DNA of 64,000 nt from Chiloscyllium plagiosum. Its lineage: Eukaryota. Below are positions 30,753 to 53,689 of the stretch, piece after piece. Numbering within the stretch: the stretch's first letter is position 1; every line of letters starts with the position of its first letter. The stretch is taken from NCBI RefSeq assembly GCF_004010195.1, contig NC_057718.1, positions 8,021,552-8,085,551 on the forward strand, written 5' to 3'. Made by a program: the position numbers and the translations under genes. Below the pieces are notes generated by a model. The model saw only the letters and a list, made by a program, of their open reading frames with translations, had not been told where the DNA came from and did not search any database.

Positions 30753-31472
30753 TTATGAACATGTGCAGCCTCTAGAGTTGACTTGCCAGCCAACCAACCA
30801 GCCTCTTTTTCCCACGTAGCTCCTCTGAAACATCGCATTCTTACATCTGCCTTAATGAGCAAACGACGAAAAGTGTTAACATCATATTTTTCTCCACAAC
30901 ATTCAAAAAAAAAGGAGACGCTTTCTGAACTGGAATCAAAATGTCCTGAAGCACTATCTCTGAATGACTTATGATGGCAGCCCAGAGTCGATTATGTGGG
31001 GACTGCAGGTCAGGACTGGATGTAGGTGACAGAATTTTGTTCCCTGACAGGCATTTAGTGAACCAAATGGGTTCTTAGGGAATCAACATTGATTAAATGG
31101 TTGTCATTAGAGTATTTATTTATTTTTTTAAATTCCTTTTTTCAATCAAATGCAAATTTCATCATCTGTCATGGCAGGATTCATGTCTCCGGAACACTAG
31201 CCTGAGATTCTGGATTACGAGACCAGTGACAAATCTTCCCATAGATTGAGATCACTTTGCAAATACTTACAGTTAGGAAGAAAGCATAACTAAGTGTAAT
31301 GTGTTTTTCATTGTGTTGCGCATTACGAAGGTGGGGACTCAGTTTTAATTCAATTTTTAGATCTTGGTGCTGGGAAACCTGAGACTTATTGTAAGCATGC
31401 ATTTTTAATAAGGTTTTACAATCAAAAAGACAACACAGTCTAAAGATAGAAAGCAAAATATTTATTTCTTAC

Positions 31473-31532
31473 CTTGTGGAATCAATTGATCTGGAAATGC
31501 GGCGAGGTACAGTTTTGTTGTTTTGAAGAATC
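31473..31532 (-). CDS. ADGRG6: GPR126-like exon: SEA loop with furin-type site (ILQNNKTVPRRISRSIDST), phase 2-2
   Basis: ttctgtttactggttag|G...CACAAG|gtaaga; 60 nt; R-I-S-R|S motif at the position of the GPR126 furin site. Confidence 0.8.
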
Positions 31533-31874
31533 CTAACCAGTAAACAGAAAATAATTCTGATTTGTAAAGATGAACTTTTGAGTGGGATAGAAAGAAAAAA
31601 AAAGGCAATTGGGTTTGTTACAGGAATTTTTCCACTAAAGATTATCAGGAGAAAGTGGCAAAATGGGACTGAGTTGGATGGTCAGCCATAATCCTATTGA
31701 ATGGCAGGACGAGGTCAAAGGGCTGAATGGCCTACTGCTCCTCCTATTTTCTATGTTTCTATGTGTAGTGCCATTCCATAAATTGCTACGTTTATGAAAA
31801 ACAGAATCTGTATTTGAATGGACTCATAAGAACAGAAGAGTTAGCCTGCACATTCATTTGATAAGATCATGGCC

Positions 31875-32082
31875 GAGGAGAAAGTGAGGACTGCAGATGC
31901 TGGAGATCAGAGCTGAAAATGTGTTGCTGGAAAAGCGCAGCAGGTCAGGCAGCATCCAGGAAGCAGGAGAATCGACGTTTTGGGCATGAACCCTTCCTGA
32001 AGAAGGGCTCATGCCCGAAACGTCGATTCTCCTGCTCCCTGGATGCTTCCTGACCTGCTGCGCTTTTCCAGCAACATATTCC
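31875..32082. mobile_element. Short palindromic Penelope-derived element with minimal hammerhead motif and 12-bp TSD
   Basis: TSD aagatcatggcc at 31863-31874 and 32083-32094; ctgaagaagggctcatgcccgaaacgtc at 31997. Confidence 0.88.
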
Positions 32083-32921
32083 AAGATCATGGCCAAGTCC
32101 ACCTTCCTACCTCTTTCAGTATTTCTGCCAGTTCCCAATACAAAAAGTTAACGCAGAACACTGTGGATGCTGGAATTCGGAAATAAAATCAGGGGGCCCT
32201 GAAGAACATTAGTAGATCTGGCAGCATCTAGACCCAAAACTCTCTTTCTCTCTCCATTGATGTCAGCCGTGATGTGGAGGTGCTGGTGTTGGACTGGAGT
32301 GGACAAAGTCAAAAATTACATGGGTTTATTTGGAGCCCCGCTCCTTCTTCAGATAGGTACATTAGGTAGGAGCAGGGCTCCGCAAGCTCGTGGTTTCAAA
32401 TAAACCTGTTGGACTATAACCCAATGTCGTGTGATTTTTGCATCAAAAGTCTGTTAAGAACGCTTTCAACACAATGTGTTACACCAGAGTCACAGTTGGG
32501 GAAGAAGGTTGGTAATGCTCCATCATGGAATAAAGGTAACGTTGCCATGGTTTTACTGGACAATAGAGTTGCTCCTTCATTAAAGAGAGATGACTGGTGA
32601 TGGGTTAACCTGAGGTCACCACACCTCAGGCAAGGGGAGAGGTTGAGAAGGACAGTCCTTCAGGGTAACATCAGCCAGTGTGGGAACTGGACCCATACTG
32701 TTGGTGCTATTTTGCAGTGCAAACCAACATCCAGCATTCTAAGCTAGCTGACCCTCTCAGCCACTAACTCATGGAGACTCCAAAGCCAGCGCCTTCCAAA
32801 CCCAAGACCTCCACCATCTCGAAAACCAAAGGGGCAGCAGAAGTAGGGGAACACCAAATTCCCTTACAATCCAATATGTTGCTGCTGTTGTGTCGCTGGC
32901 TCAAACCCTGGAATTCCCAAC

Positions 32922-33421
32922 NNNNNNNNNNNNNNNNNNNNNNNNNNNNNNNNNNNNNNNNNNNNNNNNNNNNNNNNNNNNNNNNNNNNNNNNNNNNNNN
33001 NNNNNNNNNNNNNNNNNNNNNNNNNNNNNNNNNNNNNNNNNNNNNNNNNNNNNNNNNNNNNNNNNNNNNNNNNNNNNNNNNNNNNNNNNNNNNNNNNNNN
33101 NNNNNNNNNNNNNNNNNNNNNNNNNNNNNNNNNNNNNNNNNNNNNNNNNNNNNNNNNNNNNNNNNNNNNNNNNNNNNNNNNNNNNNNNNNNNNNNNNNNN
33201 NNNNNNNNNNNNNNNNNNNNNNNNNNNNNNNNNNNNNNNNNNNNNNNNNNNNNNNNNNNNNNNNNNNNNNNNNNNNNNNNNNNNNNNNNNNNNNNNNNNN
33301 NNNNNNNNNNNNNNNNNNNNNNNNNNNNNNNNNNNNNNNNNNNNNNNNNNNNNNNNNNNNNNNNNNNNNNNNNNNNNNNNNNNNNNNNNNNNNNNNNNNN
33401 NNNNNNNNNNNNNNNNNNNNN
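32922..33421. other. Assembly gap (500 N)
   Basis: Run of N. Confidence 1.
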
Positions 33422-33575
33422 CTTATAGAGATTTATAAAATCATGAGGTGCATGGATAGGGTAAATAGGCAAAGTCTTTTCCCTGGGGTAGGGGAGTTCA
33501 AACGTAGAGGGCATAGGTTTAAGGTGAGAGGGGAAAGAAATAAAAGAGACCTTAGGGCAACTTTTTCATGCAGAG

Positions 33576-33614
<39 letters not shown>

Positions 33615-33826
33615 ATGAGCTGTCAGAGGAAGTGGTGGAGACTGGTACAATTACAACATTTATGAGGCATTTGGATGGGTATATGAATAGGAAGGGTTTG
33701 GAGGGATATGGGCCGGATGCTGGCAGGTGGGACTAGATTGGGTTGGGATATCTGGTCAGCATGGATGGGTTGGATCGAAGTGTCTGTTTCCATGCTGTAT
33801 ATCACTATGAGGCTATGACTCTATGA
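33422..33826 (+). mobile_element. CR1 LINE 3' fragment with an internal (TG)n expansion, followed by a partial HE1 SINE
   Basis: LIEIYKIMR.MDRVNRQSLFP; (tg)n at about 33578-33609; (ctatga)n tail. Confidence 0.88.
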
Positions 33827-34619
33827 CACTGCTGTCTGTGTGGAGTTTGTACATTCTCCTTGTGTCTGCGTGGGTTTCCTCAGAGTGCTCCGGTTTCCTT
33901 CCGCAATCCAAAAATGTGCAGTTCAGATGGATTGGCTGTGCTAAATTGCCTATAATGTTCAGGGACGTGTTAGTTAGGGGTAAAGTCCATGCCAGTCAAA
34001 ACAATCATCTAACTATTCCACTCCCATTTCCCAGTACTTGGCCCACAGCCTTGTGTGCCTTGGTATTGCAAGAACACATCTAAATATTTCTTAAATGTGA
34101 TTATGGTTTCTGTCTCTACCAATTTGATGGGCTGAATGGCCTTACTTCCACTTCTATGTCTTATGGTCTAACCTTAGAGGCAGGGAGTTCCAGGTTCCCA
34201 CCATCCTCTGGGTGAAATGATTTTCCTCACATCTCCTCTCAACCTCCTACTTTAAATCTACCATCCCAGTCATTGATCGCTCTACCAGGGGAATGGTTCC
34301 TTCCTGTCTATCCTGTCTCTGCCCCTCATAATTTTATACATCTCAGTTTTAGAGTATCAATATATTTTATACGGTCTGCCCTCAGTACCACAAAGAAAAG
34401 CATGTCAAACTGATCAAGTAGTCACATATCTTTGGGCTCCTTGTATGGGAAATGGTCCCAAAATCTCATAATTATCCATTGTTACATGGGAGTTGAGGTT
34501 TCGGTGTTGTAAGGGGAAGGCAGGATAAGTAATGGATCAAAAAGAAAAAACAATCAAGGAAGATTGTTCCTTATCCTTGGCTCTCAAGTCCAGGTCACAT
34601 TTGGAACCTATATACTGAT

Positions 34620-34840
34620 TGCAATGAAGTCAGCCAGGTGGACCTCATAGAATATGAGTTCCCTGATTAAGGCTGTTAACCTGATCCAGTCAGGGAGCCC
34701 TGGCTGACATATATAAGGGACAGAGGTTCTGTTCACTCTGAGAGCTAGCTCTGAAGGAGCTGGATCAGTGTCAAGGACTCTCCATGTTTAAATAAAAGGG
34801 GACTTGGTGATGAGATATCAGTCTCTGTGAAGTTATTTCA
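34620..34840 (+). mobile_element. Possible short solo LTR
   Basis: TG...CA termini, internal TATA (atatataa) and AATAAA; no clear TSD. Confidence 0.5.
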
Positions 34841-35045
34841 ACCCACATGAATATTCCCTTTTCTAACCAGATGTCATTGTAATAAAGACAGATGGTAGTG
34901 TCGTGGGAATGTCATTGCACTAATAATCCCAGGGCCCTAGCCAAAGCTTTGGGCAAAAGCAGGTTCACATTTAAATTCAATGAATAAGTCTGGAAATATA
35001 AAGTCACTCATGGTGAACATTAAAACCAAAAGAACTGTGGATGCT

Positions 35046-35742
35046 TATTACAACACGGGATAAACCCTCCTGCTCAATTTAACCCAGCAACACAGAAAAG
35101 ATATATTCCATGCTGTAACCTGTGAAAATTCGATAGGCCAAGAACTAGTTAAAGTAAAAATTAACAACTTTATTTCTTTAAGTATAACAGAGAATAATTA
35201 ACTAGCAACTATTTATAATTCCTTCCTCTAACCTATCGTTTACTGTCCATTCTACAATACTAGTCCAATAAAACCACCAATTAAGACTTACAAAATAAAA
35301 CTTCTTATCTCAAAACAGGCAGCTTTTTGTTCTTCTCTGTATTCCTGTCTTCTTTTCTTCTTCTTGGGGATTCTGCTACACAGGTTACTGATCAATAAAG
35401 GTACCTTTAAGAGAGCTATTTTTCAGGCAGTCTCTACATGCTGGCTTGGCAGTTCTCTCCCCCAACTGTTCAATTTTCCCCGGTCTTATACTCCCAAAGC
35501 ATTGGATTGCATCACTGGTTTTTAAGATCATCGATATACTACATTCAAACTTTGTCGGAGTTTAGTTTTTTGGGGGCAGGTATAATTTAAACTGTTTGGT
35601 CGAATTCAGATCTGTTTTTTGTTGTTTCCAGGCAACCAGTTACCCCAGTAGCTGGAGCACATTGTGTCTTATTGAGAACACTTGGTGCTGTCACTACTCG
35701 CTTTACTCTCTTAAAGTACAGTACACCCACATCATCATAACG
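35046..35742 (-). mobile_element. Solo LTR (about 697 bp) inserted into a short repeat
   Basis: 5-bp TSD atgct at 35041-35045 and 35743-35747. Termini tattac.../...ataacg look like mutated TG..CA. It interrupts the gaactgtggatgct|gtaaatcagaaacaaaaacagaa repeat, seen intact at about 58315. Minus-strand AATAAA near 35170. Confidence 0.75.
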
Positions 35743-36377
35743 ATGCTGTAAATCAGAAACAAAAACAGAAGTAGCCAGAAAAGCTCAGCAGGTCTGGTAG
35801 GATCAGAAATACATTCTGATGAAGGATCACTCAAATGAAATATTAACTCTAACTTCTCTCCACAGATACTACTTGGCCAGCTGAGCTTTTCCAGCCATTT
35901 CTGTTTTTATTTGTTGCTGACAGTGACCATCAATGCTATCAAACCCCATTTGGTTCTCTAATATCCTTTGAAAAAGGCAATCTGCCATCCTTACCTGATC
36001 TGGCCTACATGTCACTCCAGGCCCAGGGCAATGTGATTAACTCTTTAAGTACTTTCCGAAATGGCCGACAGAGACACTCAGTTCAAGCATCATTAGAGTT
36101 GAGCAACAAATACTGGCCTTGCTGTGATACCCTCATCTTATTAATGAAAGAAGAAATGTCCTTGCATTTGGCATCCAAAACTAGGGGGTTTAGCTCAACA
36201 TGAAATCCTCCCCTACCCCAGTCTCTGCTGCTTACCTGCTCTCAGTCTTCACCAGATGAGTAGTGATGGGGTGATAGAGGGAGGCCTTACTGAGGAGGCT
36301 ATTACTGACACACAAAATGAGCATGGTGGTCCATTAGCTGCAGAAGAACTAAGAAAAGGCCAACTGAGAGTACTTAC

Positions 36378-36466
36378 CCAGTTTGATATTCTTTGCTCCA
36401 GATCTGCTATGTTCATGTCCCCAATCTCATCATGGACCGTAAACTGCGTCATGTATAAAAGTCCCC
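36378..36466 (-). CDS. ADGRG6: GPR126-like exon: start of SEA domain (GLLYMTQFTVHDEIGDMNIADLEQRISNW), phase 1-0
   Basis: ttctcgccgcacag|GG...AACTGG|gtaagt; 89 nt; ends in the Trp seen at the equivalent GPR126 exon end. Confidence 0.85.
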
Positions 36467-38910
36467 CTGTGCGGCGAGAACAGAGAAATGTTATGACTCA
36501 TGTCACCTCCCACACCCTCCATCCTCAAAACACACGTGGCTTCCTAAGATCACGGAGAATAGCCATGATGGATATTCATTCTGAACCTGATTAGAGATTA
36601 GATTAGATTAGATTACTTACAGTGTGGAAACAGGCACTTCGGCCCAACAAGTCCACACCAACCCGCCGAAGCGCAACCCACCCAGACTCATTCCCCTACT
36701 AGTTGACAATTGGAGACTTAACAAATTCCTAAAGCCCCTCACAGTTTTTAACAGTGAGCAGGTTTCTGAGGAATCAGATATGATGAGAATTTCTCTTTCT
36801 AAACGTGACAAGTTATTGAAATTTGGAATAATCTGAAAAGGTGTACAGAGTCGAAACAACAGCAAACTCCAAAAGGGAGTCGGGAATAGAACCAAAAGTA
36901 AGAAATTTGTAAAGTGATTCAAAAAGAGGAGGGGAGTGGGATTAATTGGCTCACTCTTCCAAAGAGCTGGAATAGTCATGACGGGCTGAATGGCCTCCTC
37001 TGCGTCCTGTGGTTCGATCATTCAGAAGGTAAGCGTAGAGTGTGTGAGGTAGGAGCCAGTGGAACAGCTGGAGTTTAAGGTTGGATACAGTGGACCCGAC
37101 ACTATGTTGAGAAAAAAATGTACCTTCACAATGGACTTAAGGGATGGATGACAACCTAAAAAACAAATCTTATTTCTGACTCATCATCTGTGTTGGAATA
37201 CGGTTATTAATGTGTGAATGGATCTCTGATTCTCAAGTGTAGTTCTGTGAAATGCAGAATCCTGTAATTATAAGAGTGGTTTACTACAGACCAGGGGAAA
37301 CCTAAGTGACAAATGTGCAGACTTCATTGAGTGCTCTATATTGCTTGGCTCTCAGGAGGAAAGGAAGCAAAGAGGTAATCACCCTCTTTCACCCAGTTAC
37401 AAATGCTGGAAGTAGCATTGATCGGTTAGATCTCCTGCACACTCAACCCCAGTACTGACAGAAAAGCGAGTGCCACACAAGAACTGTGCAAGGGGTTAGT
37501 CCGCACAGTCCTCTCTAGATGGCGCCTTTCACATGGCTAATGGGGGCTGGTGCGTTACAATTAGAGGTGAACGATAAATCTTTGGATTGTGATTGTTTGC
37601 CGGAGATCGAGAGGGGGATGGAAATTAAACCACTTGATAGAAATAAATGAAGCACGTGGAATTAAGCCTCTCAGCAGAGAGAAAATTAAATGCCAGAGTA
37701 CAGTTTCGCTGACAATATTCCTCGTCCTAACTCTGCCTCAAACACGAGGCTGCAATTTATGGGGTGTTCTTTTGGGGCTGGGGAGGCTTTAGCCCCAGGG
37801 TTGTGCCAACTGCGCCACAGCTGGGTGTAAAACCACTCCCCATCTATTTCACACCAACAGGCAATGCTAAATACCACATGATCAGGAGGTTGGCAAGCTC
37901 GTTAACTGGTCTTTCCTAAAAGGAGTCCAGGCCTCCGATCTCTGTGGTCTCTTGCCCTCCGTAATTCCGAAGGTAGGCATCAGCAGGCCATGGTTTCTCT
38001 TTGTACACAAAGAGACTCGTGGTTAGCACCCGGAAAATCCAGCCCCCACTGTTCTGTAATCACACCAATCATAAAGATTGGTGTCGCATTTCATTGGAGA
38101 CAAACCACATCCAATGGACTCAAAGGGTTAACATACAAAGCATTGGGCGAAATTGGGTTGAAATTTTGGTGTTTGCAAACCGGACCTGACCAGAAGTTGA
38201 GGATGTGAACCATTTCAGTTGTTCTTCATTTTGCACATTCAACCAGTAAACACCACACTGCCATCTCAGTCCAGAGCAGGGCAGAATAATCTATAGCTAC
38301 AGTTAAGCAAAAACTGACAACTCTCTTCCTCCCCTTCATATGGAGCGTGTTCCACAGTGCCAGGTTTATAAACCCACAACATTCACAGTTGCAGTCATGC
38401 TTTGAAGTCTCTCCTTCCATGAGAAACAAACATTTCTGCTGGAGCCAATAAATCTTGAACCAAACTCCAGGAATGTGTTGCTCATCATAGAGAGAAACAG
38501 GTTGTTATTCATTAAAAGAGGAATTTCAATTTGCCATCCAGAAATTGCAAGAGTTTATTAAAAAATAAATAGTAACAGAATTATTTATTTTTGTGGCAGA
38601 GGGTAATGTCACTTTTTGCATGGCTACCCTTCAAGGGGAATGAACGTGTGGTAATTTGGTTCGGCTTTGGATGAATTTTTAATAGGAAAGTGATTTAATT
38701 ATCGCTGCTAATGCTATTCAGTAAGCTTTGCAAAAGGAAGGTATTCTATAACCACTAAGCTTCACTGCAATCAGCCATCTCCTCACATCATACTATCATC
38801 TAGAAGGTCTACAGATACAGCCCAGCATCTATGCAGGTGAGGCAACTATCAGCAGTGCTTTTCCGTGGTACACTCTGCTACAGATTTCTACAAGTGCAGC
38901 TAAGACATAC

Positions 38911-41900
38911 AGTTGGAGACCACTGGTCCACACAAGCGGCCTGTCCCATCAGCCTCTTCACCAATGCGGCACACGGAGGCTTGGTCAGGGGTGATGGATA
39001 GCTGCCCGCTCTCCAAGCTGGTGGGGAGAGCACCGCCAGGTCCATAAACCTCACGAGAGTGATCTGGAGGAGATGTCACAACAATGGGGGAGAAAGCAGC
39101 TGGAAGGTGTGAGAAATTTGTTGTGGAGGTTTGAGACAGTTGGCGCAGTGGATCAGAGACAGCATTCATCCATGTGTTGATGGCAAGGTCCCAGCTCAAT
39201 GGAGAAGGATGTACACCAATTGAGTAATCCCGGGAAGAGGCCATTGGTAATGTTGGCGCCAGTGTCAGGTCTTGAGTTTCACTACTTAACTGAGGAGGAT
39301 CTACTGGTATTCCTTCTCATAAAGACTATGAAATACTGAATGGGAGAGAGTACAAACTCTGAATATAAATGCTTGGCTCTTCACCAAAAGACTTGTGACC
39401 CTGCAATGCTCTTGCATGTTTCTGACTTGTTAAAATTATGCTGAAAAGTAGAGTTGGGAAGTCTAGTGTGGGTTGTATAAACCCACTGACCAATGTCTGT
39501 TCAAGTTCTGCCCCTGTAAAAATGTAATCTAGTTCCTCATGTTGGGGGGTTCTTGTTAGGAATGGGGTATGTGTACTGAACAAAGTCTTTTGTGGTCCCA
39601 AATGAACAGGCATCATAGTCATTGCCTGGACATCTTTAGACATTCCCAAAGCGGAATCTGAAAATGGTTCCCACTTCAATTCAGGATTCCAAGGATGGAG
39701 ACTCGCTTGATTGTCTATCCTATCTGGAGTGAAACCCAACAATGAATGCCATGCAGTTACATTATCTGCTGAGTCCTCGACTAACTGATGTCCAAGTTGG
39801 ACTTGCACTTCCTTCTTTGAAGGAGGGGTCACAAGTTTCTCCCCCATGTCAGAGCTGAAAGTCACAGTTGAAATTCCAATGGCATTGGAAACAATTCCCC
39901 AGTGGCTCTCAAATACTTCTGGAAATGTCAGAAAACCAGGAAAATATGTTCCATTTATAGGCCTGTGAGATGAATTTGACGTTAATGATAGTGTTTGTTC
40001 CAACTCAGAAAGATCGTCATGATGATGGGAATTTGAGTTCTCACTTCTTACAAATACAGATATATCTGAAGACATGGGCAGGAACATGACTGTTACCACT
40101 GGGGTCCAGTCCAAAGGGACAGTCCAGGTGCTCCCAATGTTTTTCATTGAGCTGTCCAAAGAAGACTTGAGGTAATCAGTTCCTGATGTGAAACCATTTC
40201 TCAGGCTAAGAGTCTCAAGGGTCAACTTGGTTGAGATGTGCAAGGGTGCAAGTGAAACCTCTTTGTTTCTGGCTCATGATCCTACATCATCTGGTATCAA
40301 TGTTTCCCATTTGTTTTCCATCACAAGAGGTGTACGCTGATGTCCTTGTGTTGTATGCAATGTGATATCAGTCAGTAAGATCAGATGATGGTCTTTGTCG
40401 GTGACAGGCAAAAAGTGAGGACTCACTTCTGTTGACAACCTCCACCAGGTGTCTGTACTCAGGAAAGTCTCTTTTGAGGGAGATAAGCTGTCTGTTTGTA
40501 GCTCAGAGGTTTCTCCCTTTCCTGATGCACCAGCCATCTCAACACATATGTGTGTGCCAGTTTGCAAGGTTATAGGATGAAGATTGACTGACCACGTTGG
40601 ACCTGAAATGGAGGGATGGACGCTGGACTCAAGTCTTTCCATTGCTAACATCTCTGTGTTGCATGGGGAATGGTTAACAGCATTGTTGAGTTTGGATGTA
40701 GACGCTGTTAGAGAATTACCCCAGAAATTTTCAGGTGTGGAAGGAATATTTACCATGTCGGGAATGAGTGGAGCTGTTAAAACATCTGGAAGGCTCAAGT
40801 TCTCATGTGACTGTATTGACATAACCAGAGAGTCTACACTTTGCATGAAGACAGGAATGTCATCTCCTTGTCCTCTTGCTGAAAGTTGGCCTGGAAACAT
40901 GATAAGCTCATCAGATTGCCTTAATTGATTTTTTAGCTCTTCTGTACTGATGAGCAACCTTTGGGTTGATGGTATAGACTCTCTGTTAAAGTGGTCTGTT
41001 AACTGGACAGAATTTGCAGTGCTTGGTGGTTGAGTGACAGTAAAGTTAATATTGATGCTTTCGAAGGTAGCCTTCGACATGATGGATTTTACATCCCCAA
41101 AATCAATGTCTCCCAGAATACGTAATGAAGGTGTCCAATTGTACAAGCTACTGATGCAGTGTGTTGATAAGGCACTGTTTGAAGACATAATTGCTAAATG
41201 GTGCTTGTGCAATGCTAGTTCCTGAGTACTCATAGGAGATCCAATGTCACCATGCAGGGATGATACTTCAGGCTCTATGTTAAACTGATCCCTTCAAGAC
41301 ACACGCACAGTGCTTAAAGGGTTTCCTATCCGGCTTGAACTATTAGTCATCTTCGAGAATGAACCAGTTAATAAGTGTCTGTATGATGCAACAGTTGTTG
41401 GCAAGCTGACTACCTGCATTGTTGGAGTAAACCTAATTGTTGAATCTAAAACTAAAAGTGGGGTTTGGGAACGTATCTCCAGTGATTCCACCAGAACAGA
41501 CGACCCGGCATTGATAATGCGCTGACCTGGCAATACCACAGAAGATACAGTCCCACTGTTCACTAACGCTCCCATTCCAGCATCAACTCCAACTCCAGCC
41601 GTCGAAACCTTGTGATTTTCAAGATCAGTGGATGGCCTCTCAAACCTGGAGACTGGCTCACTGCCCAGGGTTGTTACATTGTGAGTAGAGTTCCCAGACT
41701 GGTTTGTCAATTTCTTTGACCAGGCGATGACTTCAGAATTCTTTTGAAAGGGGTTTGGCTCTTTGTTGGCTGGGCTTCTCTTTTCACCTTTGGTCAATTG
41801 TTCCAACTTTGTGACACCTTGTGGCCTCTTGGTTACAGCCTTATAGAAGACAATAGGTGCCCCATGTGTGTTCAGTATCGCTGGCCTCAGAACACTGGGT

Positions 41901-42069
41901 ACATTGGGTCTCAGTGGGTACCTCAGTGGCGTGGAGATGATACCCAATGGGTGCCTGGGCCTTCTCGTCCTCTGTTCTGCTTTTGAGGTAGAATGATGCC
42001 ACACTTCTGGGAGGACAACTGGGGTCAGTATCTGGAATCCCTGCAAATCTGAATCATTAAGGCTTCCTG
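38911..42069 (-). pseudogene. Giant mucin-like S/T/P-rich exon (1053 codons, phase 1-1) with four in-frame stop codons; decayed cassette exon or alternative terminal exon
   Basis: ORFs 41294-42046, 40274-41233, 39326-40243 and 38900-39244 are all in one frame. Acceptor tttgccctctaacag|CA at 42069, donor TCCAACT|gtatgt at 38911. Stops: TGA 41294-41296, TGA 40274-40276, TAG 39326-39328, TGA 39317-39319. Confidence 0.7.
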
Positions 42070-42163
42070 CTGTTAGAGGGCAAAGTATCCCATCATTATC
42101 TTGTCACATTAACTTCAATAAACCACCACCCCCACCAATCCATAATGGTACTGAACAATGTCA

Positions 42164-42290
42164 GTTCTGAAGAAGGGCTTATGCCCGAAACGTCGATTCT
42201 CCTGTTCCCTGGATGCTGCCTGACCTGCTGCGCTTTTCCAGCAACACATTTCCAGCTCTGATCTCCAGCATCTGCAGACCTCACTTTCTC
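42164..42290 (+). mobile_element. Short Penelope-derived element with minimal hammerhead motif and 13-bp TSD
   Basis: TSD ctgaacaatgtca at 42151-42163 and 42291-42303; ctgaagaagggcttatgcccgaaacgtc at 42167. Confidence 0.9.
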
Positions 42291-43186
42291 CTGAACAATG
42301 TCAACACAAGGATTCTTGGGAGCAAGCTGCTTTGGCCCAATAATTTGAGACTTACGAGAAAAAGCAAAAAGGATAAAAATAGTTTGGTTCATTTGAACAG
42401 GAAAAGACAGAAACTGAGTTGATAAAACTGTATAAAATCTAAAACTTCACTAATCTCAAACAATAATGCAGAAATATAAAGGGGATTTGAATATTCATGG
42501 CTGTGCCCAAAGGGAGATTCTCCAGGTTCCCTTGCAGTTTCACTCATTGGGAGAATTAGTGATACAATGCTGTAAAATACATGGTCTAATTCTCTCATGA
42601 CACTCTCCTGTCTGTACCCCAATAATGCTGTTGCGTAAGTAAAAGCTAGTTAAATGGTGACCATATAACCGATGTAGATTGTCGCAAAATCTCATCACAT
42701 TTACTAATGTTGTTCAGTGTGGGAAACCGCCATCCTTACCTGGTCTGATTCACGTTACTCCAGTCCCACAGCATTGGAGTTGACTCCCAGCTGCTCTTCA
42801 AAATGGCCTAGAGAGCCTATTAATTCAAGAGTAACTAGGAATGGGCAAAAAATATTGGCCTTGCCTATGATACCCCTATCCCATACAAGAATAATAAAAT
42901 AAAGAGATGCACTGTAGGACATATAATCATTAGTAGCTCAACCAGCGGACAAGGTCTTCAGGAAAACAAGGGAGAGATACCTTTTGTTTAAAGGAAATTT
43001 GAACAACTTTGCAATTATTGGAGCAGGGAGGAAGATCCATTTAGAAAACCTCTTTACCTTCCCTTTCACCACTGCATGATCAATGAATAGAATTTAAAAG
43101 ATAGATATAACGCATGTCAGCCCTCAAATTCCCCATTCCTTATCAGCTGTGTTAATGGCAGTGCTGCAGCTAAAAACAGCTCAATA

Positions 43187-43460
43187 TGGTTAGCACTGCT
43201 GCCTCACAGTGCCTAGCACCGCTGCCTCACAGCGCCAGGGACCTGGGTTCAATTCCTGCCTCAGGTGACTGTCTGCATGGAGTTTGCACATTCTCCCTGT
43301 GTCTGTCTGTGAGTTTCCTTCCACAGTTCAAAGATGTGCAGGTTGGGTGGATTGGCCATGCTAAATGTGAAGTTGTGGTGAGTCTGGATAGGATGCTCTT
43401 CAAAGGTTTGAAGCAATTTTGATGGGCTGAATGGCCTTGATCTGCACTACAGGGATTCTG
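43187..43460 (+). mobile_element. HE1-like V-SINE
   Basis: tggttagcactgctgcctcacag head (partly duplicated) and B box gggttcaattcc. Confidence 0.85.
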
Positions 43461-43669
43461 TGGTTGCTTCTGATGTGCAGAGGTGGAATGTCTCACTGTG
43501 TGTGAGGAGGGAACCTTTCAGTTTGAATACTGTCCCTTCAGGAAGAAATCTGGCTTCGAATTTGTCCCTCTTCTGGAGTGTTTGATATAAGCCGATACCA
43601 TTGAGGTATGCCTGTGTCTCAGTAGATAATCTCCCTAACTGTGTGTTGGAATACTTAAACCCCACTCAA

Positions 43670-43990
43670 AACCTCGACCTGTAATTCAGGCTGACAGTCC
43701 CAGAGCATTCCTGAGAGACTGCGACACTCTCAGAGGTGCTGCTTTTTAGGGGCTATGTGAAACCAAGCCTCAAACCACTGTATAGTATCTCGAGGTATTA
43801 TTTTGAGGGAGAGAGCTGTTTGAGAATTCCCTCAATCAACACCTCCAAAGCAGAATATCTGGATATTATCACTTCGTCTATTTGCAGGAGCTTGCTGTGA
43901 ACAAACTGCCAACTGTTATACAGCCATGACCATCTTTCAAATATTTACCGTGAAACATTTTGGCTCGCGACCGCACATAAAATGTAAAAA
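43670..43990 (+). mobile_element. Deu-domain SINE, diverged
   Basis: caggctgaca...cagaggtgctg...ccctcaatcaacac...tttgcaggagcttgctgtg matches the recalled Deu core. Confidence 0.6.
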
Positions 43991-44160
43991 TAAAACAAAA
44001 ACTGCAGATGCTGGAAATCTAAAACAAAGGCAGCCATTGCTGGAGAAACTCAGCAGGTCTGGCAGCATCTGCGGAGAGAGAAAACAAAGTTAATGTTTCC
44101 AGTCCACTGGTGCTTCTTCGGAGTGTACGGTTTTGATGTAGGGTCGCTGGATCTAAAGCG

Positions 44161-44985
44161 TTGATTTGATTTGATTTACTGTCACGTGTACCTTACCACA
44201 GTGTAAAGCTTTGTTCACAAGTAGTACAGGCAGGTCATAATAAGCAGGGATGTACAGATGAAAGGGTGAAAACAAAACTTAGACCAAGGCATACAGGTTA
44301 CATCGCACAGACCGGGCGCTCGACAAAATCAACATTAGCAAGATCAGCATTATGTGAAGTTAGAGAGGTCCAATCATCAGTCTGACAACAGCAGGGAAGA
44401 AGCTGTTCCTGAACCTGTTGGTGCGAGTGTTCAAGCTCCTGTATCTCCTGCCTGACAGAAGAGGTTGGAAGAAAGCATTACCAGGGTGGGAGGGATCTTT
44501 GATGATGTTGGCTGCCTTTCTGTGGCAACGAGCTGTGTAACTGGAGTCCGTGGATGGGAGGTTGGCTTCTGTGATGGTTTGGGCTGTGCACACAACTTTC
44601 TGTAAGTTTCTTACAATCCTGGGCAGAGCAGTTGCCGTAATGGGCCATTATGTACTTAGACAGGATGCTCTCAATGGTTCATCTGTAGAAATTGGCGAGG
44701 GTCTTTTGCACATGCTGAATTTCCTGAGCCACCTGAGGAAGAAGACTTGTTATTGTGCCTTCTTGACCATTACATCTATGTGGGAGGTCCAGGACAGGTT
44801 CTCGGTTATTGTCATTCCAAGGAGCTTGATGCTGTGCACCCTCTCACCCTCAGGTCCATGATGTAGATGGGAGCGTGTTCCCCTCCTTTCTTTATGAAGT
44901 CAGTGACCAGTTCTTTAGTTTTGCCGAGGTTGAGAGAGAGATTGTTCTCATTGCACCATATCAGCTACCCCTCTATCTCCTTTTA
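44161..44985 (-). mobile_element. Rex1/Babar-like LINE 3' fragment
   Basis: Encodes KAANIIKDPSHPG..FFQPLLSGRRYRSL.TRTNRFRNSFFP; (gattt)n tail; nested in a short repeat. Confidence 0.85.
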
Positions 44986-45769
44986 GCTCTGCTTTCTTTC
45001 CACAGGCGCTGACAGACCTGTTGGATTTCTCCAGCAATATCTGTTTTGGTTTCTGTATCAATGCAGATTCTTTCTTTCAAAACATCCTGGATCTTGACTA
45101 CCCTCACAACAGAAAGGTACACACAGTGGGTCATTGTCCCCATCGTGGACTGAGCTCAGTGACCACCGCATATTGCACAAACTCCACAGGGGCAGTGAGA
45201 TAGCCATTCCACACACATATCCCCTTTGAAGAAGCTCACAATGCTTTTTTCATTTATTCACGGGATGTGGATGTCACTGGCTAGGCCAGCATTTATTGCC
45301 CATCCCTAATTGCCCAGAGGGCTGTTAAGAGTCAACCTCATTGCTGTGGGTCTGGAGTCACATGTAGGCCAGACCAGGTAAGGATAGCAGTTTCCTTCCC
45401 TGAAGGACATTGGTGAACCAGATGGCAATGGTTTCATGGTCACCATTAAACCCCTTACTCCAGACTTTTAGTGAATTCAAATTCCACCATCTGCAGTGGC
45501 AGGATTCAAACCTGGGTTCCCAGAACATTACCTGGAGTTTATGAATTGATTGTCTAGTGAAAATGCCACAAGACCATCACCTGCTCAAAAATCCCGAGTG
45601 AGGAAGTTGGCAGTTGATTGGGTGGCTCTCCATTGCCACATTGAGTTAGACCACCAGTGCAAATGAAACACAAGCACAGACCATCACCATTACAGCCACG
45701 ATTGCATCTCACCAGCCATCACCTGTGTGACTGTCATCCAGTAGCACTCTCACCAGTATCAGTGAGTTA

Positions 45770-46185
45770 GAACATAGAACAGTCCAGCACAGGAACAGGC
45801 CGTTCAGCACACGATACTGTGCTGAACATAACGTCAATTTAAACAAATCCCTTCTGCCTGTCCATGGTCCATATCCCTCCATTCCTTGCTTATTCATGTG
45901 CCTATCAAAAAGCCCCTTAAACACCCCTATCATACCTGCCTCCACCACCATCTCTACCACTCTCTGTGTAAAAAACCTGCCCCTCACATCTCCTTTGATT
46001 TGTTCCCTCTCATCTTAAAGGAATATCCCCTAATTTTAGACATTCCAACTCTGGGAAAAAAGATTCTGGCTGTCAAACCTATCTGTAACTCTCATAATGT
46101 AATAGACTTCCATCAGGTCACTCCTCAGCCTCTGCCACACCAGATAAAGCAACCTGAGCCTGTCCAGCCTCTCCTTCCAACACAT
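45770..46185 (-). mobile_element. CR1 LINE 3' fragment
   Basis: RGRFFTQRVV; agaacatagaac tail. Confidence 0.8.
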
Positions 46186-46367
46186 CCCCTCTGCTATATC
46201 TCGATAGTACTTCTTCAGCATGGAATTATGTTCAACAGACAACCCGTTTTGCGGAATCTGATTGAAAAAATAACATTTCAAAAAACCATTTTTGCGGCTG
46301 ATAAAATGAGGAGCAATGAAATAGGAAGTACCATTTGGAACAGGATAATGAGGATTTCTTTTGCATA

Positions 46368-46492
46368 GGAGAAAGTGAGGACTGCAGATGCTGGAGATCA
46401 GAGCTGAAAATGTGTTGCTGGAAAAATGCAGCAGGTCAGGCAGCATCCAAGGAACAGGAGAATCGACGTTTCGGGCATGAGCCCTTCTTCAG
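46368..46492 (-). mobile_element. Short Penelope-derived element with minimal hammerhead motif
   Basis: Reverse complement of the 42164-42290 family; another copy at about 63244-63368. Confidence 0.85.
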
Positions 46493-46719
46493 CCCTTTCT
46501 TTTGTGTAACCATTTTAAGTCGCTGCATCACAAAAGATTCATCAACTCCTTTTTATTCCAAGAACATTGCTGCTTTAAATCTGTGTTTGTATTCCTTTCG
46601 GTCTGATTCGTCAACTCCCTCCAGCTTCATTCGTATAGCACCTACCTATACCCTCATACTGAAGAACATTTTAGGTGTTCCTTCTCTAACTTTACTGTTT
46701 GAAGAATTGCCGGTGTTGT

Positions 46720-49700
46720 TTTGGGACTTCTCATTATTTGTCTGACTGGGGCTGCGCTTCTCATTGTTTGTCTGACTGGGACTGCACTTCTCATTGTTTG
46801 TCTGACTGGGACTGCGCTTCTCATTGTTTGTCTGACTGGGACTGCGCTTCTCATTGTTTGTCTGACTGGGACTGCGCTTCTCATTGTTTGTCTGACTGGG
46901 ACTGCGCTTCTCATTGTTTGTCTGACTGGGACTGCGCTTCTCATTGTTTGTCTGACTGGGACTGCGCTTCTCATTGTTTGTCTGACTGGGACTGCGCTTC
47001 TCATTGTTTGTCTGACTGGGACTGCGCTTCTCATTGTTTGTCTGACTGGGACTGCGCTTCTCATTGTTTGTCTGACTGGGACTGCGCTTCTCATTGTTTG
47101 TCTGACTGGGACTGCGCTTCTCATTGTTTGTCTGACTGGGACTGCGCTTCTCATTGTTTGTCTGACTGGGACTGCGCTTCTCATTGTTTGTCTGACTGGG
47201 ACTGCGCTTCTCATTGTTTGTCTGACTGGGACTGCGCTTCTCATTGTTTGTCTGACTGGGACTGCGCTTCTCATTGTTTGTCTGACTGGGACTGCGCTTC
47301 TCATTGTTTGTCTGACTGGGACTGCGCTTCTCATTGTTTGTCTGACTGGGACTGCGCTTCTCATTGTTTGTCTGACTGGGACTGCGCTTCTCATTGTTTG
47401 TCTGACTGGGACTGCGCTTCTCATTGTTTGTCTGACTGGGACTGCGCTTCTCATTGTTTGTCTGACTGGGACTGCGCTTCTCATTGTTTGTCTGACTGGG
47501 ACTGCGCTTCTCATTGTTTGTCTGACTGGGACTGCGCTTCTCATTGTTTGTCTGACTGGGACTGCGCTTCTCATTGTTTGTCTGACTGGGACTGCGCTTC
47601 TCATTGTTTGTCTGACTGGGACTGCGCTTCTCATTGTTTGTCTGACTGGGACTGCGCTTCTCATTGTTTGTCTGACTGGGACTGCGCTTCTCATTGTTTG
47701 TCTGACTGGGACAGCGTTTCTCATTGTTTGTCTGACTGGGACTGTGCTTCTCATTGTTTGTCTGACTGGGACTGCACTTCTCATTGTTTGTCTGACTGGG
47801 ACTGTGCTTCTCATTGTTTGTCTGACTGGGACTGCACTTCTCATTGTTTGTCTGACTGGGACTGCACTACTCATTGTTTGTCTGACTGGGACTGCGCGAC
47901 TCATTGTTTGACTGGGACGGCGCTTCTCATTGTTTGTCTGATTGGGACTGCACTTCTCATTGTTTGTCTGACTGGGACTGCGCTTCTCATTGTATGTCTG
48001 ACTGGGACTGCGCTACTCATTGTTTGTCTGACTGGGACTGCGTTTCTCATTGTTTGACTGGGACTGCGCTTCTCATTCTTCATCCGACTGGGACTGCGCT
48101 ACTCATTGTCTGACTGGGACGACGCTTCTCATTGTTTGACTGACTTGGACGGCGTTTCTCATTGTTTGTCTGATTGGGACTGTGTTTCTCATTGTTTGTC
48201 TGACTGCGATGGCATTTCTCATTGTTTGTCTGACTGGGACTGCACTTCTCATTGTTTGACTGGGATGGTGTCTCTCATTGTTTATCTGACTGGGACTGCG
48301 CTTCTCATTGTTTGTCTGACTGGGACTGCGCTTCTCATTGTTTGTCTGATTGGGACTGCGCTACTCATTGTTTGTCTGACTGGGACTGCGCTTCCCATTG
48401 TTTGTCTGACTGGGAGTGCACTACTCATTATTTGTCAGACTGGGACGGCGCTTCTCATTGTCTGACTGGGACTGCGCTTCTCATTGTTTGCCTGACTGGA
48501 ACGGCGCTTCTCATTGTTTGTCTGACTGGGACGGCACTTCTCATTGTTTGTCTGACTGGGACTGCGCTACTCATTGTTTGACTGGGAAGGCGCTTCTCAT
48601 TGTTTGTCTGACTGGGACTGCGCTACTCATTGTTTGACTGGGACGGCGCTACTCATTGTTTGGCTGACTGGGACTGCGCTACTCATTGTTTGACTGGGAC
48701 TGCACTACTCATTGTTTGTCTGACTGGGACGGCGCTACTCATTGTTTGTCTGACTGGGACTGCGTTTCTCATTGTTTGTCTGACTGGGAAGGCGTTTCTC
48801 ATTGTTTCTCTGACTGGGACTGCGCTACTCATTGTTTGTCTGACTGGGACTGCACTACTCATTGTTTGTCTGACTGGGACGGCGCTTCTCATTGTTTGAC
48901 TGGGACGGCGCTTCTCATTGTTTGTCTGACTGGGACAGCGCTTCTCATTGTCTGACTGGGACGGCGCTTCTCATTGTTTGTCTGACTGGGACGACGCTTC
49001 TCATTGTTTGTCTGACTGGGACGGCGCTACTCATTGTTTGTCTGACCGGGACGGCGCTTCTCATTGTTTGTCTGACTGGGTCTGCGCTTCTCATTGTTTG
49101 TCTGACTGGGACGGCGCTTCTCATTGTTTGTCTGACTGGAACGGCGCTTCTCATTGTCTGACTGGGACTGCGCTACTCAATGTTTGTCTGACTGGGACTG
49201 CGCTTCTCATTGTTTGTCTGACTGGGACGGCGCTTCTCATTGTTTGTCTGACTGGGACGGCGCTTCTCATTGTTTGCCTGACTGGAACGGCGCTTCTCAT
49301 TGTTTGTCTGACTGGGACTGCGCTACTCATTATTTGTCTGACTGGGACGGCGCTTCTCATTGTCTGACTGGGACGGCGCTTCTCATTGTTTTTCTGACTA
49401 GAACGGCGCTTCTCGTTGTTTGTCTGACTGGGACGGCACTTCTCATTGTTTGTCTGACTGGGACTGCGCTACTCATTGTTTGACTGGGACGGCGCTACTC
49501 ATTGTTTGTCTGACTGGGACTGCACTACTCATTGTTTGTCTGACTGGGACGGCGCTACTCATTGTTTGTCTGACTGGGACTGCGTTTCTCATTGTTTGTC
49601 TGACTGGGAAGGCGTTTCTCATTGTTTGTCTGACTGGGACTGCGCTACTCATTGTTTGTCTGACTGGGACTGCACTACTCATTGTTTGTCTGACTGGGAC

Positions 49701-50234
49701 GGCACTTCTCATTGTTTGACTGGGATGGCGCTTCTCATTATTTGTCTGACTGGGACAGCGCTTCTCATTGTCTGACTGGGACGGCGCTTCTCATTGTTTG
49801 TCTGACTGGGACGGCGCTTCTCATTGTTTGTCTGACTGGGATGGCGCTACTCATTGTTTGTCTGACTGGGACTGCGCTACACATTGTTTGTCTGATTGGG
49901 ACTGCACTTATCATTGTTTGTCTGACTGGGACTGTGCTTCTCATTGTTTGTCTGACTGGGACTGCGCTTCTCATTGTTTGTCTGACTGGGACGGCGCTTC
50001 TCATTGTTTGACTGACTGGGACTGCGCTACTCATTATTTGTCTGACTGGGACGGCGCTTCTCATTGTTTGTCTGACTGGAACGGCGCTTCTCATTGTCTG
50101 ACTGGGACTGCACTACTCAATGTTTGTCTGACTGGGACTGCGCTTCTCATTGTTTGTCTGACTGGAACGGCGCTTCTCATTGTTTGTCTGACTGGGACTG
50201 CGCTACTCATTATTTGACTGGGACTGCGTTTCTC
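46720..50234. repeat. 30-bp minisatellite array, at least 3.5 kb, running into the gap
   Basis: Unit tctgactgggactgcgcttctcattgtttg; perfect from about 46790 to 47710, then variant 30-bp and 26-bp units. Confidence 0.98.
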
Positions 50235-50734
50235 NNNNNNNNNNNNNNNNNNNNNNNNNNNNNNNNNNNNNNNNNNNNNNNNNNNNNNNNNNNNNNNNNN
50301 NNNNNNNNNNNNNNNNNNNNNNNNNNNNNNNNNNNNNNNNNNNNNNNNNNNNNNNNNNNNNNNNNNNNNNNNNNNNNNNNNNNNNNNNNNNNNNNNNNNN
50401 NNNNNNNNNNNNNNNNNNNNNNNNNNNNNNNNNNNNNNNNNNNNNNNNNNNNNNNNNNNNNNNNNNNNNNNNNNNNNNNNNNNNNNNNNNNNNNNNNNNN
50501 NNNNNNNNNNNNNNNNNNNNNNNNNNNNNNNNNNNNNNNNNNNNNNNNNNNNNNNNNNNNNNNNNNNNNNNNNNNNNNNNNNNNNNNNNNNNNNNNNNNN
50601 NNNNNNNNNNNNNNNNNNNNNNNNNNNNNNNNNNNNNNNNNNNNNNNNNNNNNNNNNNNNNNNNNNNNNNNNNNNNNNNNNNNNNNNNNNNNNNNNNNNN
50701 NNNNNNNNNNNNNNNNNNNNNNNNNNNNNNNNNN
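50235..50734. other. Assembly gap (500 N)
   Basis: Run of N. Confidence 1.
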
Positions 50735-51197: not shown

Positions 51198-51257
51198 TGG
51201 GTGCCGCAGGTTCTGTCGTTCCTGGCGATGTGATTTCCGAGAGTGGAGGGTTTGTGC
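51198..51257 (-). CDS. ADGRG6: GPR126-like S/T/P-rich linker exon (TNPPLSEITSPGTTEPAAP), phase 1-1
   Basis: ttgcttgcatcacaaag|GC...GCACCCA|gtaagt; 60 nt, symmetric, consensus donor. Confidence 0.68.
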
Positions 51258-53324
51258 CTTTGTGATGCAAGCAAATGTAAAATATTGAACACACGGCTTC
51301 CAAAAACGAGACTCTGTCCCCTTCCCACTAATCCTCAAACCCCTTGAACCATGAAGCAGTGAAATGTTACTGGATAGCATCTTGGCTGTGATTACTGTTC
51401 CCTGGTGAATCTAGTATTTACTCAATAGCAATAAACACTTTCACTGTCAGCAACATGGTTATCAACTGGTGCTCTCTGATGGTGACTCTGTGAAATTGTC
51501 CATTTTTAACCTCTGACCTTTGACCCATGGTCCTGTGCACTACCCAGGCATTGTGGAGATAAGATGGCAGGAAGGAATGACACAGTCCCTGGGGCAGTGA
51601 CTCAACCAAGTGATGTGCGGATGTACATTCAACAGCCTGATGGGCAACATCAAAAGAAAAATGGAAATGATTGGCTCCAATTTCTTCATTTAAAGAGTCT
51701 TGAGATGCTAAGGGAGACCTCTTAACATGTTAAGCAGCCTCCAAAGGCTGTGACCTCAGAGTTCTCAGGTGTAGCAGTTCTGTGACATTGTCTGTGAGAG
51801 GTGTTTGCTGTCTCCCCCCGCAGAGGGAGGCATTGCCTCGTTCACTTAAACCCAGAGGAGGAAACTTCAGATTCTCGATTTCGCAAAGGAAACTCCCCCT
51901 GGGTTTTTTTTAAAAACGGATTTGTAGAGCCGCCTGTCCATCTGGGATTCTCCCAATGGCTTGTAGAAAAATGGTTTCCCTCGCTCTACCAGAGGATACT
52001 CAAGCAAGCAAGGAGTCACCCATTGAAGGCCGAGATGAGGAATGTTTTCCTCTCATTCTCCCCCGCAGATGGCTGTTGAGTTGGGGTCACTGAGGATACT
52101 CAAGGCTGAGGTTGACAGATTTCAAAAGGGCATCAGGGATTAGGAGGATAAGGTAGGAAAGTGGAGTTGATGATTATCAGATCAGCCATTGAACGACGGA
52201 CTTGACTCAATGGGCTGAATAGCCTACTTCTACTCCTGTGCCTGTGGTTCAATTGACTTAAGCAATCATTCATTCAGAGCATATTAGGGAGCTACAAATT
52301 TCCATAGTTTGATCTGCTCTTTGGTTCCACAAAAGCCCATTCGAATTATACACTCACAAAAACTCACAGCACAGACAGAGGCCATTCGGCCTCTCACAGT
52401 TGTTTTAGAGCAAAAAAATCACGACCCGTTATCCAGTTCAGGAAATTTAAATCACCCTCTCTCCCAATAAGGAAGATTTTCCCCTTTGCAATCCTCTTTA
52501 AACTCAACTGTATACAGAAACTATTCTATCAGGAAACTCCTCTGGGTTTTTTTAAAAGACGGATTTGTAGAGCTGCCTGTCCATCTGGGATTCTCCCAAT
52601 GGCTCCACATCACACATTACAATATACAGTTAGAGAGTCATAATGGCTTGGATAGAGGCCATTCACTCCATTGAGACAGTACAAGAGTATTTCTGTATTA
52701 CTGCGTACTATAATTGCATATTGTAAAGCTTATATGTTACCTTGTTGTAACATGCCATAATATGCCAAACTATGGTGTATCATATATCACAAATAATTAT
52801 TTAAGAATTTATGCAGTGGAAGTCCATTATAAAGCAGGTATTGGGACCTGAAAAATGAAACAATTTTGAACTAGAAAAATGAAGATTGAAATAAAGATTG
52901 ACCTTTTCTGGGAGGGGCTCATGAAACCTCCACACTTTAAATAAATTTGTAATGCATTGATTCATAATGGATTCCACTATATAACAGCCCAATTGGATTT
53001 AATATATTTTTTGTGCAAAATGATATTCTAGTTTCGTAAGTGTCAAATAATTTTCATTTGACGACTGCATATGTTTTCTTTTGGCATTTTCTATCATAAA
53101 TAACTATGTGCTCATTTATAAAGGGAGCTGTATATATAAACATGACACACTGTCATTGAACCCTTCTCTTGGTAGATGAACTGCAACACCACCAGTGGTA
53201 GGAGGGTATCATTACACCACAACATCCTTACCACAGCTTTCCCCATAACAACTGTGCACAGAGTAATTGATAACTTGAGATATCTCAAAATAATAACAAA
53301 ATGAGTAAAACAAGGTTTGCTTAC

Positions 53325-53399
53325 CAGCAGTGGAGGGCTCAGGGCTGTTAGTACCATGCGTGTTAGTGATACTAGTGCTGAAATGGGATGGTGTGGTCA
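53325..53399 (-). CDS. ADGRG6: GPR126-like S/T-rich linker exon (TTPSHFSTSITNTHGTNSPEPSTA), phase 1-1
   Basis: tcttccttatcttgttaccag|TG...ACTGCTG|gtaagc; 75 nt, symmetric, mucin-like composition. Confidence 0.72.
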
Positions 53400-53689
53400 C
53401 TGGTAACAAGATAAGGAAGAAACATGCAGGTGGCTGCAGGTTAGTTCAGGCGAAATGAAGGAGTTTGTCATTGCACACCACGACTGACAGAACTCATAAT
53501 CAATCATCATCAAAAAGTACAATACCTCCCTTTGCCCCATAAACGTTGCTATTTCATACAGATTATGGATTTGGCCATTGTGAGCCATTCAGGTTGGCCT
53601 TGTTCCAGTGGGAGCAATGTCCCCCCCCCTGAGTTTGGATGGTTGTGCTGCTCTTGAATACGTAATCTAAGCTGACACTTCAGTGCAGC

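Follow-up and report, generated by a model that had tools for sequence, protein, structure and literature searches.

Why should an intron of an adhesion receptor gene hold more than 3 kb of almost uninterrupted reading frame on the strand of the gene itself? The question arises in a window of 64,000 nucleotides from the bamboo shark Chiloscyllium plagiosum (RefSeq assembly GCF_004010195.1, contig NC_057718.1, positions 8,021,552–8,085,551), which carries part of the gene for ADGRG6, also known as GPR126. The frame occupies positions 38911–42069 of the window, between the exons for the pentraxin (PTX) and SEA domains, and a preliminary description made from the DNA letters had read it as a hidden, mucin-like exon of this receptor. 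We find that the frame does derive from an exon. Probably it represents, in the shark, the orthologue of a giant ADGRG6 cassette exon that is symmetric (phase 1-1) and older than the shark–skate split, and most likely it was recently disabled in this species. All features of the gene given below lie on the minus strand, and their coordinates are those of the window.

According to Leon et al. 2020 (PMC6954182), GPR126 is needed for Schwann-cell myelination and for ear and heart development. Exon 6 of the gene (the +ss form) adds a Ser/Thr-rich (S/T-rich) segment of 23 residues in zebrafish and 28 in human to the linker between PTX and SEA; with this insert the ectodomain moves away from closed towards open-like forms, and signalling increases (PMC6954182).

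One frame with intact splice signals

Four minus-strand open reading frames (ORFs) rich in Ser, Thr and Pro (41294–42103, 40274–41293, 39326–40273, and 38900–39316) are segments of a single frame, as had been proposed. It runs from 42067 to 38912 through 1052 codons, with four stops and no frameshift. The other five frames of 38911–42069 contain 32, 54, 56, 67, and 70 stops, and when the segment was shuffled 1000 times the count was 55.5 ± 6.9 stops, with a minimum of 32. A chance open frame was rejected on these counts and on the full-length skate homology described below. The four interruptions are a TGA at codon 258 (41294–41296), opposite a four-residue gap in the alignment with skate; a TGA at codon 598 (40274–40276), where skate has Phe; and a TAG at codon 914 (39326–39328) and a TGA at codon 917 (39317–39319), which lie 9 nucleotides apart.

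Both ends of the frame carry splice signals. The acceptor region (42066–42084) consists of a pyrimidine tract, ctttgccctct, followed by aacag/CAG, a NAGNAG arrangement that reads ctttgccctctaacag/CAG/GAAGCC and places the exon start at either 42069 or 42066. The donor gtatgt (38905–38910) follows ...CCAACT. The exon so delimited, 38911–42069, spans 3159 nucleotides, a multiple of three made up of 2 nucleotides, 1052 whole codons, and 1 nucleotide, so that the intron phase is 1 on both sides. The flanking exons match, which bears out the phases given in the preliminary description. Upstream, the last short S/T/P-rich linker cassette (51198–51257; 20 codons, TNPPLSEITSPGTTEPAAP) is phase 1-1 and ends GCACCCA/gtaagt; downstream, the first SEA-domain exon (36372–36466; GLLYMTQFTVHDEIGDMNIADLEQRISNW) begins cacag/GGGGAC, its 5′ end being in phase 1. 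The intron between 51257–51198 and 36466 is 14.7 kb long, and the giant frame lies inside it on the gene strand. Canonical joining of the two flanking exons creates an Arg codon (A/GG), in agreement with the bamboo-shark protein (EPAAP-R-GLLYMTQF). Joining the last base of the giant exon (T) to the GG of the SEA exon gives TGG (Trp), at a position where skate has Arg.

Orthology to the giant exon of skate ADGRG6

With each of its four stops written as X, the frame was compared by phmmer with 1,835,955,588 representative proteins. At E ≤ 0.001 a single one matched: XP_032881912.1, isoform X10 of ADGRG6 from the thorny skate Amblyraja radiata (2374 residues; E = 9.4e-66). BLASTP aligned shark residues 1–1052 with skate residues 445–1523 in a single colinear alignment (E = 1e-77) with 347 of 1169 columns identical (30%) and 207 gap columns, and the Smith-Waterman score was 849, against 57.8 ± 4.8 for 30 shuffles. 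The alignment contains approximately 30 gap events, every one of them frame-preserving. Pfam places Pentaxin at residues 159–340 and SEA_Gpr126 at residues 1523–1637 of the skate protein; the skate segment therefore fills the slot of the shark frame, and both end before SEA at the same residue. A word-index search with the shark frame among longer proteins returned no match, and it also missed the skate protein, a limitation of the index.

Shark and skate thus share the gene, the slot after the S/T cassettes and directly before SEA, the phase, an island of sequence reading PLGIISTPLR[YF]PLRP, a Cys-bearing tail, and variability by one codon at the acceptor. Where the segment starts, a single Ala separates skate isoforms X10 and X2 (NEAAGSF versus NEAGSF), which is the outcome expected of a NAGNAG acceptor. 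The principal difference is that the skate exon is fully open (1079–1187 codons), whereas the shark copy contains four stops. In addition, the long skate isoforms include approximately 107 residues of tandem repeats of about 11 residues each (PHPGNESFTSD type) that are absent in shark, and the cassette preceding the giant exon in skate (...QNNTVSQNTSCNCSSNE) is at best vestigial in this window (~46703–46750). Skate isoform X10 is without the ~107 repeat residues of X2, reflecting either internal alternative splicing or a difference in repeat length between the models. The suggestion of a giant-stalk GPR126 isoform with about 1050 extra residues, present or recently present in this lineage, is upheld by the colinearity with a skate segment of 1079–1187 residues and by the matching exon ends.

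The giant segment is present in Amblyraja isoforms X1–X6 and X8–X11 and in Leucoraja erinacea isoforms X1–X7 (2367–2490 residues), all of which are automatic RefSeq predictions. Between isoforms X1 of the two skates, identity is 94.6% over the 444 residues before the segment (CUB, PTX, and linker), 96.5% over 1187 aligned residues of the segment itself (12 gap columns), and 95.3% over the 846 residues after it (SEA to the C-terminus). The segment changes no faster than the folded domains around it, which indicates comparable purifying selection; to judge from these identities, the giant exon is under purifying selection in skates, as the folded domains are. In a protein search with the skate segment, the clusters recovered (3 of 6113 candidates) were all from skates. 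No giant isoform from another shark or ray appeared in that search, which is weak evidence of absence.

Could the frame instead belong to a transposon, a virus, a retrocopy, or an independent nested gene? The surroundings would allow it: the introns of the gene hold a LINE-type (long interspersed nuclear element) fragment, and high-copy repeats flank the exon. In the 3.56-Gb genome of the shark, however, DNA and protein searches with the segment each gave a single match, the segment itself, and a Pfam search of the four ORF pieces returned no match. The one homologue that it has lies inside skate ADGRG6, where place, strand, and phase are all those of the shark frame. In a DNA run from a relative, here termed organism C, read depth over the exon is 13–22, as for single-copy sequence, against 10^4–10^6 in flanking bins; the high-copy bins beside the exon are 36551–36901, 42167–42517, 42869–43570, and most of 43922–46700. 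This contrast in depth marks the exon as unique sequence between repeats. A transposon or viral ORF, which the preliminary description had named as the counter-explanation should the segment prove multi-copy, was accordingly rejected on the single copy, the single-copy read depth, and the lack of a Pfam match, and we consider any origin of this kind extremely improbable. The intronic LINE fragment lies at 28095–28790 and encodes an Exo_endo_phos_2 endonuclease-reverse-transcriptase domain (E = 8.6e-07).

State of the exon in the bamboo shark

Because of the four nonsense codons, a productive ADGRG6 mRNA must skip the exon, as in the annotated protein of 1261 residues. Inclusion would end translation at codon 258, and only skipping would give a receptor mRNA. 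The stops are presumably fixed, and the exon is probably unused in this species.

The stops might alternatively be polymorphic or specific to the individual, be spliced out internally, or be recoded, in which case the exon would still be used and a long-stalk receptor made. Such continued use would suit the 1052 codons that run without a frameshift despite four stops, the intact pyrimidine tract, NAGNAG acceptor and GT donor, and the in-frame indels of 12 and 9 nucleotides seen in relatives. The stops are all TGA or TAG, with no TAA, which also favors it, and skate isoforms offer a precedent for internal alternative removal within the exon (X10 versus X2, ~107 residues). Against it, an independent sequencing run shows stops 3 and 4 again. 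A contig from this run (X18, 39140–39393) differs from the window at a single base, 39307, and so carries both stops; recurrence in other reads is readable for stops 3 and 4 only, and indirectly, through this contig. Their recurrence means that these two stops are not private assembly errors. Furthermore, the ADGRG6 models of C. plagiosum (1261 residues) and Rhincodon (1278 residues) are both without the giant exon, and by eye no GT..AG pair of plausible intron size is found around the stops. Nor is divergence from organism C lower in the exon (99 of 2549 nucleotides, 3.9%) than in the flanks (16 of 423, 18 of 694, and 135 of 2875; 2.6–4.7%, the third piece including 639 nucleotides of exon), so that no slowdown is visible in the exon. 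On balance, continued use in this shark is unlikely.

Recent disablement, which we favor, has difficulties of its own. Four nonsense codons are present and yet there is no frameshift over 3.16 kb, which is awkward for plain neutral decay: at the roughly 3–4 indel events per 99 substitutions found in this exon between relatives, about three frameshifts would be expected, and by our own estimate the probability of finding none is ~0.05. The exon indels in relatives are a net 12 nucleotides in organism C (40564–42133) and 9 nucleotides in a second relative, organism D (39808–40091); organism C also has a +1/−1 indel pair within 39544–40522. Both splice sites and the NAGNAG acceptor remain intact. 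The in-frame indels hint that the frame was under selection until recently. In a substitution simulation, approximately one new stop arose per 1% of neutral divergence, four stops corresponding to about 4% (~125 substitutions). Of the two arms of the wording "has, or recently had", the second is more probable in the shark, given the four nonsense codons, two of which reappear in an independent run.

None of the runs recorded as RNA contained this stretch. Four sequencing runs (X7, X18, X16, and X20, three of them only presumed to be RNA) cover intron and exon alike at low depth, and contigs continue unspliced across the acceptor in X7 (41664–42077) and X18 (41875–42124). The joint 38911>36466 is not among the joints listed in these four runs, which is uninformative on expression either way.

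A further alternative is that the stop-bearing exon has been kept for a purpose, either as a regulated "poison" cassette or as the source of a truncated, secreted CUB-pentraxin fragment ending at exon codon 258. The exon is symmetric and its splice signals are intact, and inclusion would terminate translation after 257 codons, upstream of at least 15 exon junctions. On the other hand, conservation of the whole frame, with islands far beyond the first stop, is explained by an ancestral coding role, and the exon is 3.16 kb long. We know of no poison exon of that length, and consider a retained function of this type quite improbable.

Composition and predicted structure

The encoded segment contains 13.2% Ser, 9.1% Thr, and 7.6% Pro (together 30%) and 10.6% Leu, with five Cys residues and 13 N-X-S/T sequons. 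No tandem or dispersed repeats were found in 38000–43000. Mucin (PTS) domains are built of tandem repeats in which Ser, Thr, and Pro make up roughly half or more of the residues. The label "mucin-like" given in the preliminary description goes too far: the segment is enriched in Ser and Thr but falls short of mucin grade (S+T 22%, S+T+P 30%, no repeats). AlphaFold2 modeling of the shark translation gave a mean predicted local distance difference test score of 23.3, none of the 1052 residues reaching 50, and almost no secondary structure; the input was a three-row shark/skate alignment, and the prediction is weak for that reason. The predicted disorder agrees with the composition, both pointing to a long, Cys-poor, S/T-enriched tether. 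The segment is probably a disordered, glycosylated tether, as far as composition and modeling indicate.

Conservation between shark and skate is concentrated in islands. The best conserved is PLGIISTPLRYPLRP (41906–41950), in which 14 of 15 residues are identical to skate. Just before it lies a polybasic stretch, KAEQRTRRPRH (41951–41983; SRRRQRSGK in skate), which we take, from its resemblance to the motif, to be a possible proprotein-convertase-type site. Further islands are TQRLLISTEELKNQLRQSDE (40907–40966), which shares the pattern TQRL.ISTE..NQLRQS.E with skate, a stretch reading DKD...LT..TLH.TQ.HQ..P....NKWE (40304–40399), and WRLST. The C-terminal tail, DQASVCRIGEEADGTGRLCGPVVSN (38912–38986; DQASLPCLCEATIGMSCLCGVLIVN in skate), stands directly before SEA and contains two of the five Cys residues of the exon; in skate the last 25 residues contain four. 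The tail Cys residues occupy the place of the small disulfide loop that, in the canonical isoform, is set between CUB and HormR (PMC6954182).

The consequence of an intact exon can be sketched for the skates. Its inclusion would set the CUB-pentraxin head apart from the SEA-HormR-GAIN-7TM body by ~1080–1190 residues, poor in Cys and enriched in Ser and Thr. An insert of this length would release the CUB-PTX head on a tether, converting the closed ectodomain to a permanently open, ADGRG4-like layout. In zebrafish 23 residues suffice to break the closed form, as reported in PMC6954182, from which it should follow that ~1050–1190 residues must release the head.

Comparison with exon 6, ADGRG4, and chicken ADGRG6

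Like exon 6 of zebrafish and human GPR126 (PMC6954182), the giant exon encodes an optional S/T-rich segment in the PTX–SEA linker. It is, however, approximately 45 times longer than exon 6, and it is found downstream of the short cassettes, which are themselves more likely to correspond to exon 6 in the shark.

An architectural parallel is the paralog ADGRG4 (GPR112), which, according to Kieslich et al. 2023 (PMC10687090), comprises pentraxin, a very long S/T-rich stalk, a predicted SEA domain, HormR, GAIN, and 7TM. The human stalk, residues 279–2244, is there scored as a high-confidence mucin and is proposed to act as a spacer for mechanosensing (PMC10687090). The elasmobranch exon gives ADGRG6 the same PTX-stalk-SEA layout, although the shark segment, with S+T at 22% and no repeats, differs from the high-confidence mucin of the human stalk (PMC10687090). 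No similarity to an ADGRG4 stalk was detected by phmmer, which among 1.84 billion proteins matched only skate ADGRG6, nor in a protein search of the shark's own genome, a stricter first look in which the frame matched only itself. The connection to the giant ADGRG4 exon drawn in the preliminary description accordingly stands for position and architecture and not for sequence.

The shark genome also contains a single-exon pentraxin-like domain of ADGRG4 type (G000:C12:14674565-14675143, minus strand; PDB entry 8b55, E = 2.3e-26). In the 190 kb downstream of it, a span with 8081 N, no long open or near-open frame was found; the longest S/T-rich ORFs are ~150 residues, and no stretch has fewer than 7 stops per 500 codons, compared with 1 in the giant exon. 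The nearest same-strand paralogous 7TM exon at this locus scores slightly better to ADGRG2 than to ADGRG4. Shark ADGRG4 may have no stalk, or one that is divided among small exons or concealed by gaps. A Pentaxin family scan of the genome did not set apart the aGPCR (adhesion G protein-coupled receptor) exons.

Chicken ADGRG6 models X1, X2, and X8 (for example, XP_025004497.1) carry, attached straight to the first SEA exon, a segment of 762 residues that is rich in Ser and poor in Cys (S 15%, T 7%, L 11%, C 0.4%). This segment ends in a Cys cluster, ...SCTFTELGCLCRPEINY/SGLFY (...GCLCRPEINY). The chicken models differ in that they begin (Met1) inside the segment, without signal peptide, CUB, or PTX. 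Comparison of the chicken segment with the shark and skate exons gave Smith-Waterman z values of −0.3 and 2.8 and an hhalign probability of 0.1%, none of which is significant. The chicken segment is a positional analogue; it could represent a giant linker exon in birds, or else an alternative first exon within an intron.

It is tempting to speculate that a giant PTX–SEA stalk was ancestral to ADGRG4 and ADGRG6 in jawed vertebrates, a single exon having given rise to the skate and shark exons, the chicken segment, and the ADGRG4 stalk. The copies would then have diverged beyond recognition save for position, phase, and the Cys-bearing tail, and the short exon-6 linkers of bony vertebrates would be the remnant after repeated loss. 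We regard so broad a common origin as doubtful.

The host gene and its linker cassettes

The host gene is identified as ADGRG6/GPR126 by an ORF at 3091–3492 carrying the Pfam domain 7tm_2 (E = 9.7e-20). The 7TM exon within it (3193–3465) is 100% identical to ADGRG6 of C. plagiosum and 99% to that of Rhincodon, and its best named relatives are all ADGRG6. By tblastn, the C. plagiosum protein (1261 residues) maps to the minus strand of the window in 16 colinear pieces covering its residues 354–1023. The window thus begins at residue 354 or later of this protein, leaving CUB and PTX outside it. The first SEA exon lies within the window, while the full domain set, from CUB and pentraxin to GAIN and GPS, was confirmed on the skate orthologue only.

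Two further linker exons were placed by the same tblastn map. One forms the end of the pentraxin-linker region and encodes a Cys loop (59462–59530; ...PTYCSTPGSGCQ, CSTPGSGCQ), and the other is an S/T/P-rich cassette of 26 codons (53323–53400; VTTPSHFSTSITNTHGTNSPEPSTAG). The linker cassettes are each a multiple of three in length and phase 1-1.

The number of short S/T cassettes varies among elasmobranchs. Isoform X2 of white shark has a 25-residue unit, TTSAHSSTSTTNTHGTNSPEPFTSA, five times in tandem, Pristiophorus has four copies of a unit TNPPLTEVTTQGT.EP, and Mustelus and Rhinoraja have two copies each. Exon duplication appears to be especially frequent in the PTX–SEA linker. In the bamboo shark, a minisatellite (46727–50234) of 119 copies of a 30-nucleotide unit (89% matches) translates on the gene strand as (SPSQTNNEKR)n and is adjoined by an N gap (50235–50734). 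It also adjoins ...SQNNTGNSSN, followed by a gtaaag donor at ~46703 in phase 1, with no good acceptor visible. The sequence at 46703–46750 resembles a cassette (LQT..QNS..SSNSE) that precedes SEA in other sharks and stands directly before the giant exon in skate. Judged by this resemblance, it may be a vestigial linker cassette overrun by repeat expansion.

On the other side of the giant exon, residues ~457–493 of the C. plagiosum RefSeq protein agree at 100% with a translation of intron (36252–36371, after a gtaagt donor at 36372). The second SEA exon (LTES.QNWNYSVYVESVR), present in Rhincodon, is missing from this protein and was not found in 31400–36400; it is probably inside a gap of 500 N at 32922–33421. 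The published C. plagiosum ADGRG6 model looks like a read-through artefact.

Significance

The preliminary description had offered a giant ADGRG6 isoform as undescribed. This holds for the literature: no description was found in full-text articles on ADGRG6/GPR126 splicing, sharks, skates, and paralogs, the scope being main texts in open access. The accessible portions of a 2021 paper on aGPCR evolution (PMC8584163) and of a 2026 Pharmacological Reviews article (PMC13197933) make no mention of one. It does not hold for the databases, where RefSeq predictions for two skates include it. What is new is a giant stalk exon at the regulatory linker of ADGRG6, of a kind so far tied to ADGRG4, for which the databases hold only unremarked predictions.

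The finding also bears on annotation, as giant near-open exons in presumed introns can be missed when they contain a few stops. It provides a datable case in which a giant disordered exon was gained, maintained, and lost in a lineage-specific manner.

The PTX–SEA linker is the one site in this receptor at which the conformation of the ectodomain and its signalling are known to be switched by a splice insert of 23–28 residues. At that same site lies an insert of ~1100 residues, conserved between two skates like the folded domains and still recognisable in a shark. The closed CUB-HormR conformation would consequently not be universal for ADGRG6, and the receptor would gain a long-tether form resembling ADGRG4 that is directly expressible and assayable. 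Were the stalk indeed ancestral, skates would constitute a natural experiment, the same receptor with a stalk of ~1100 residues.

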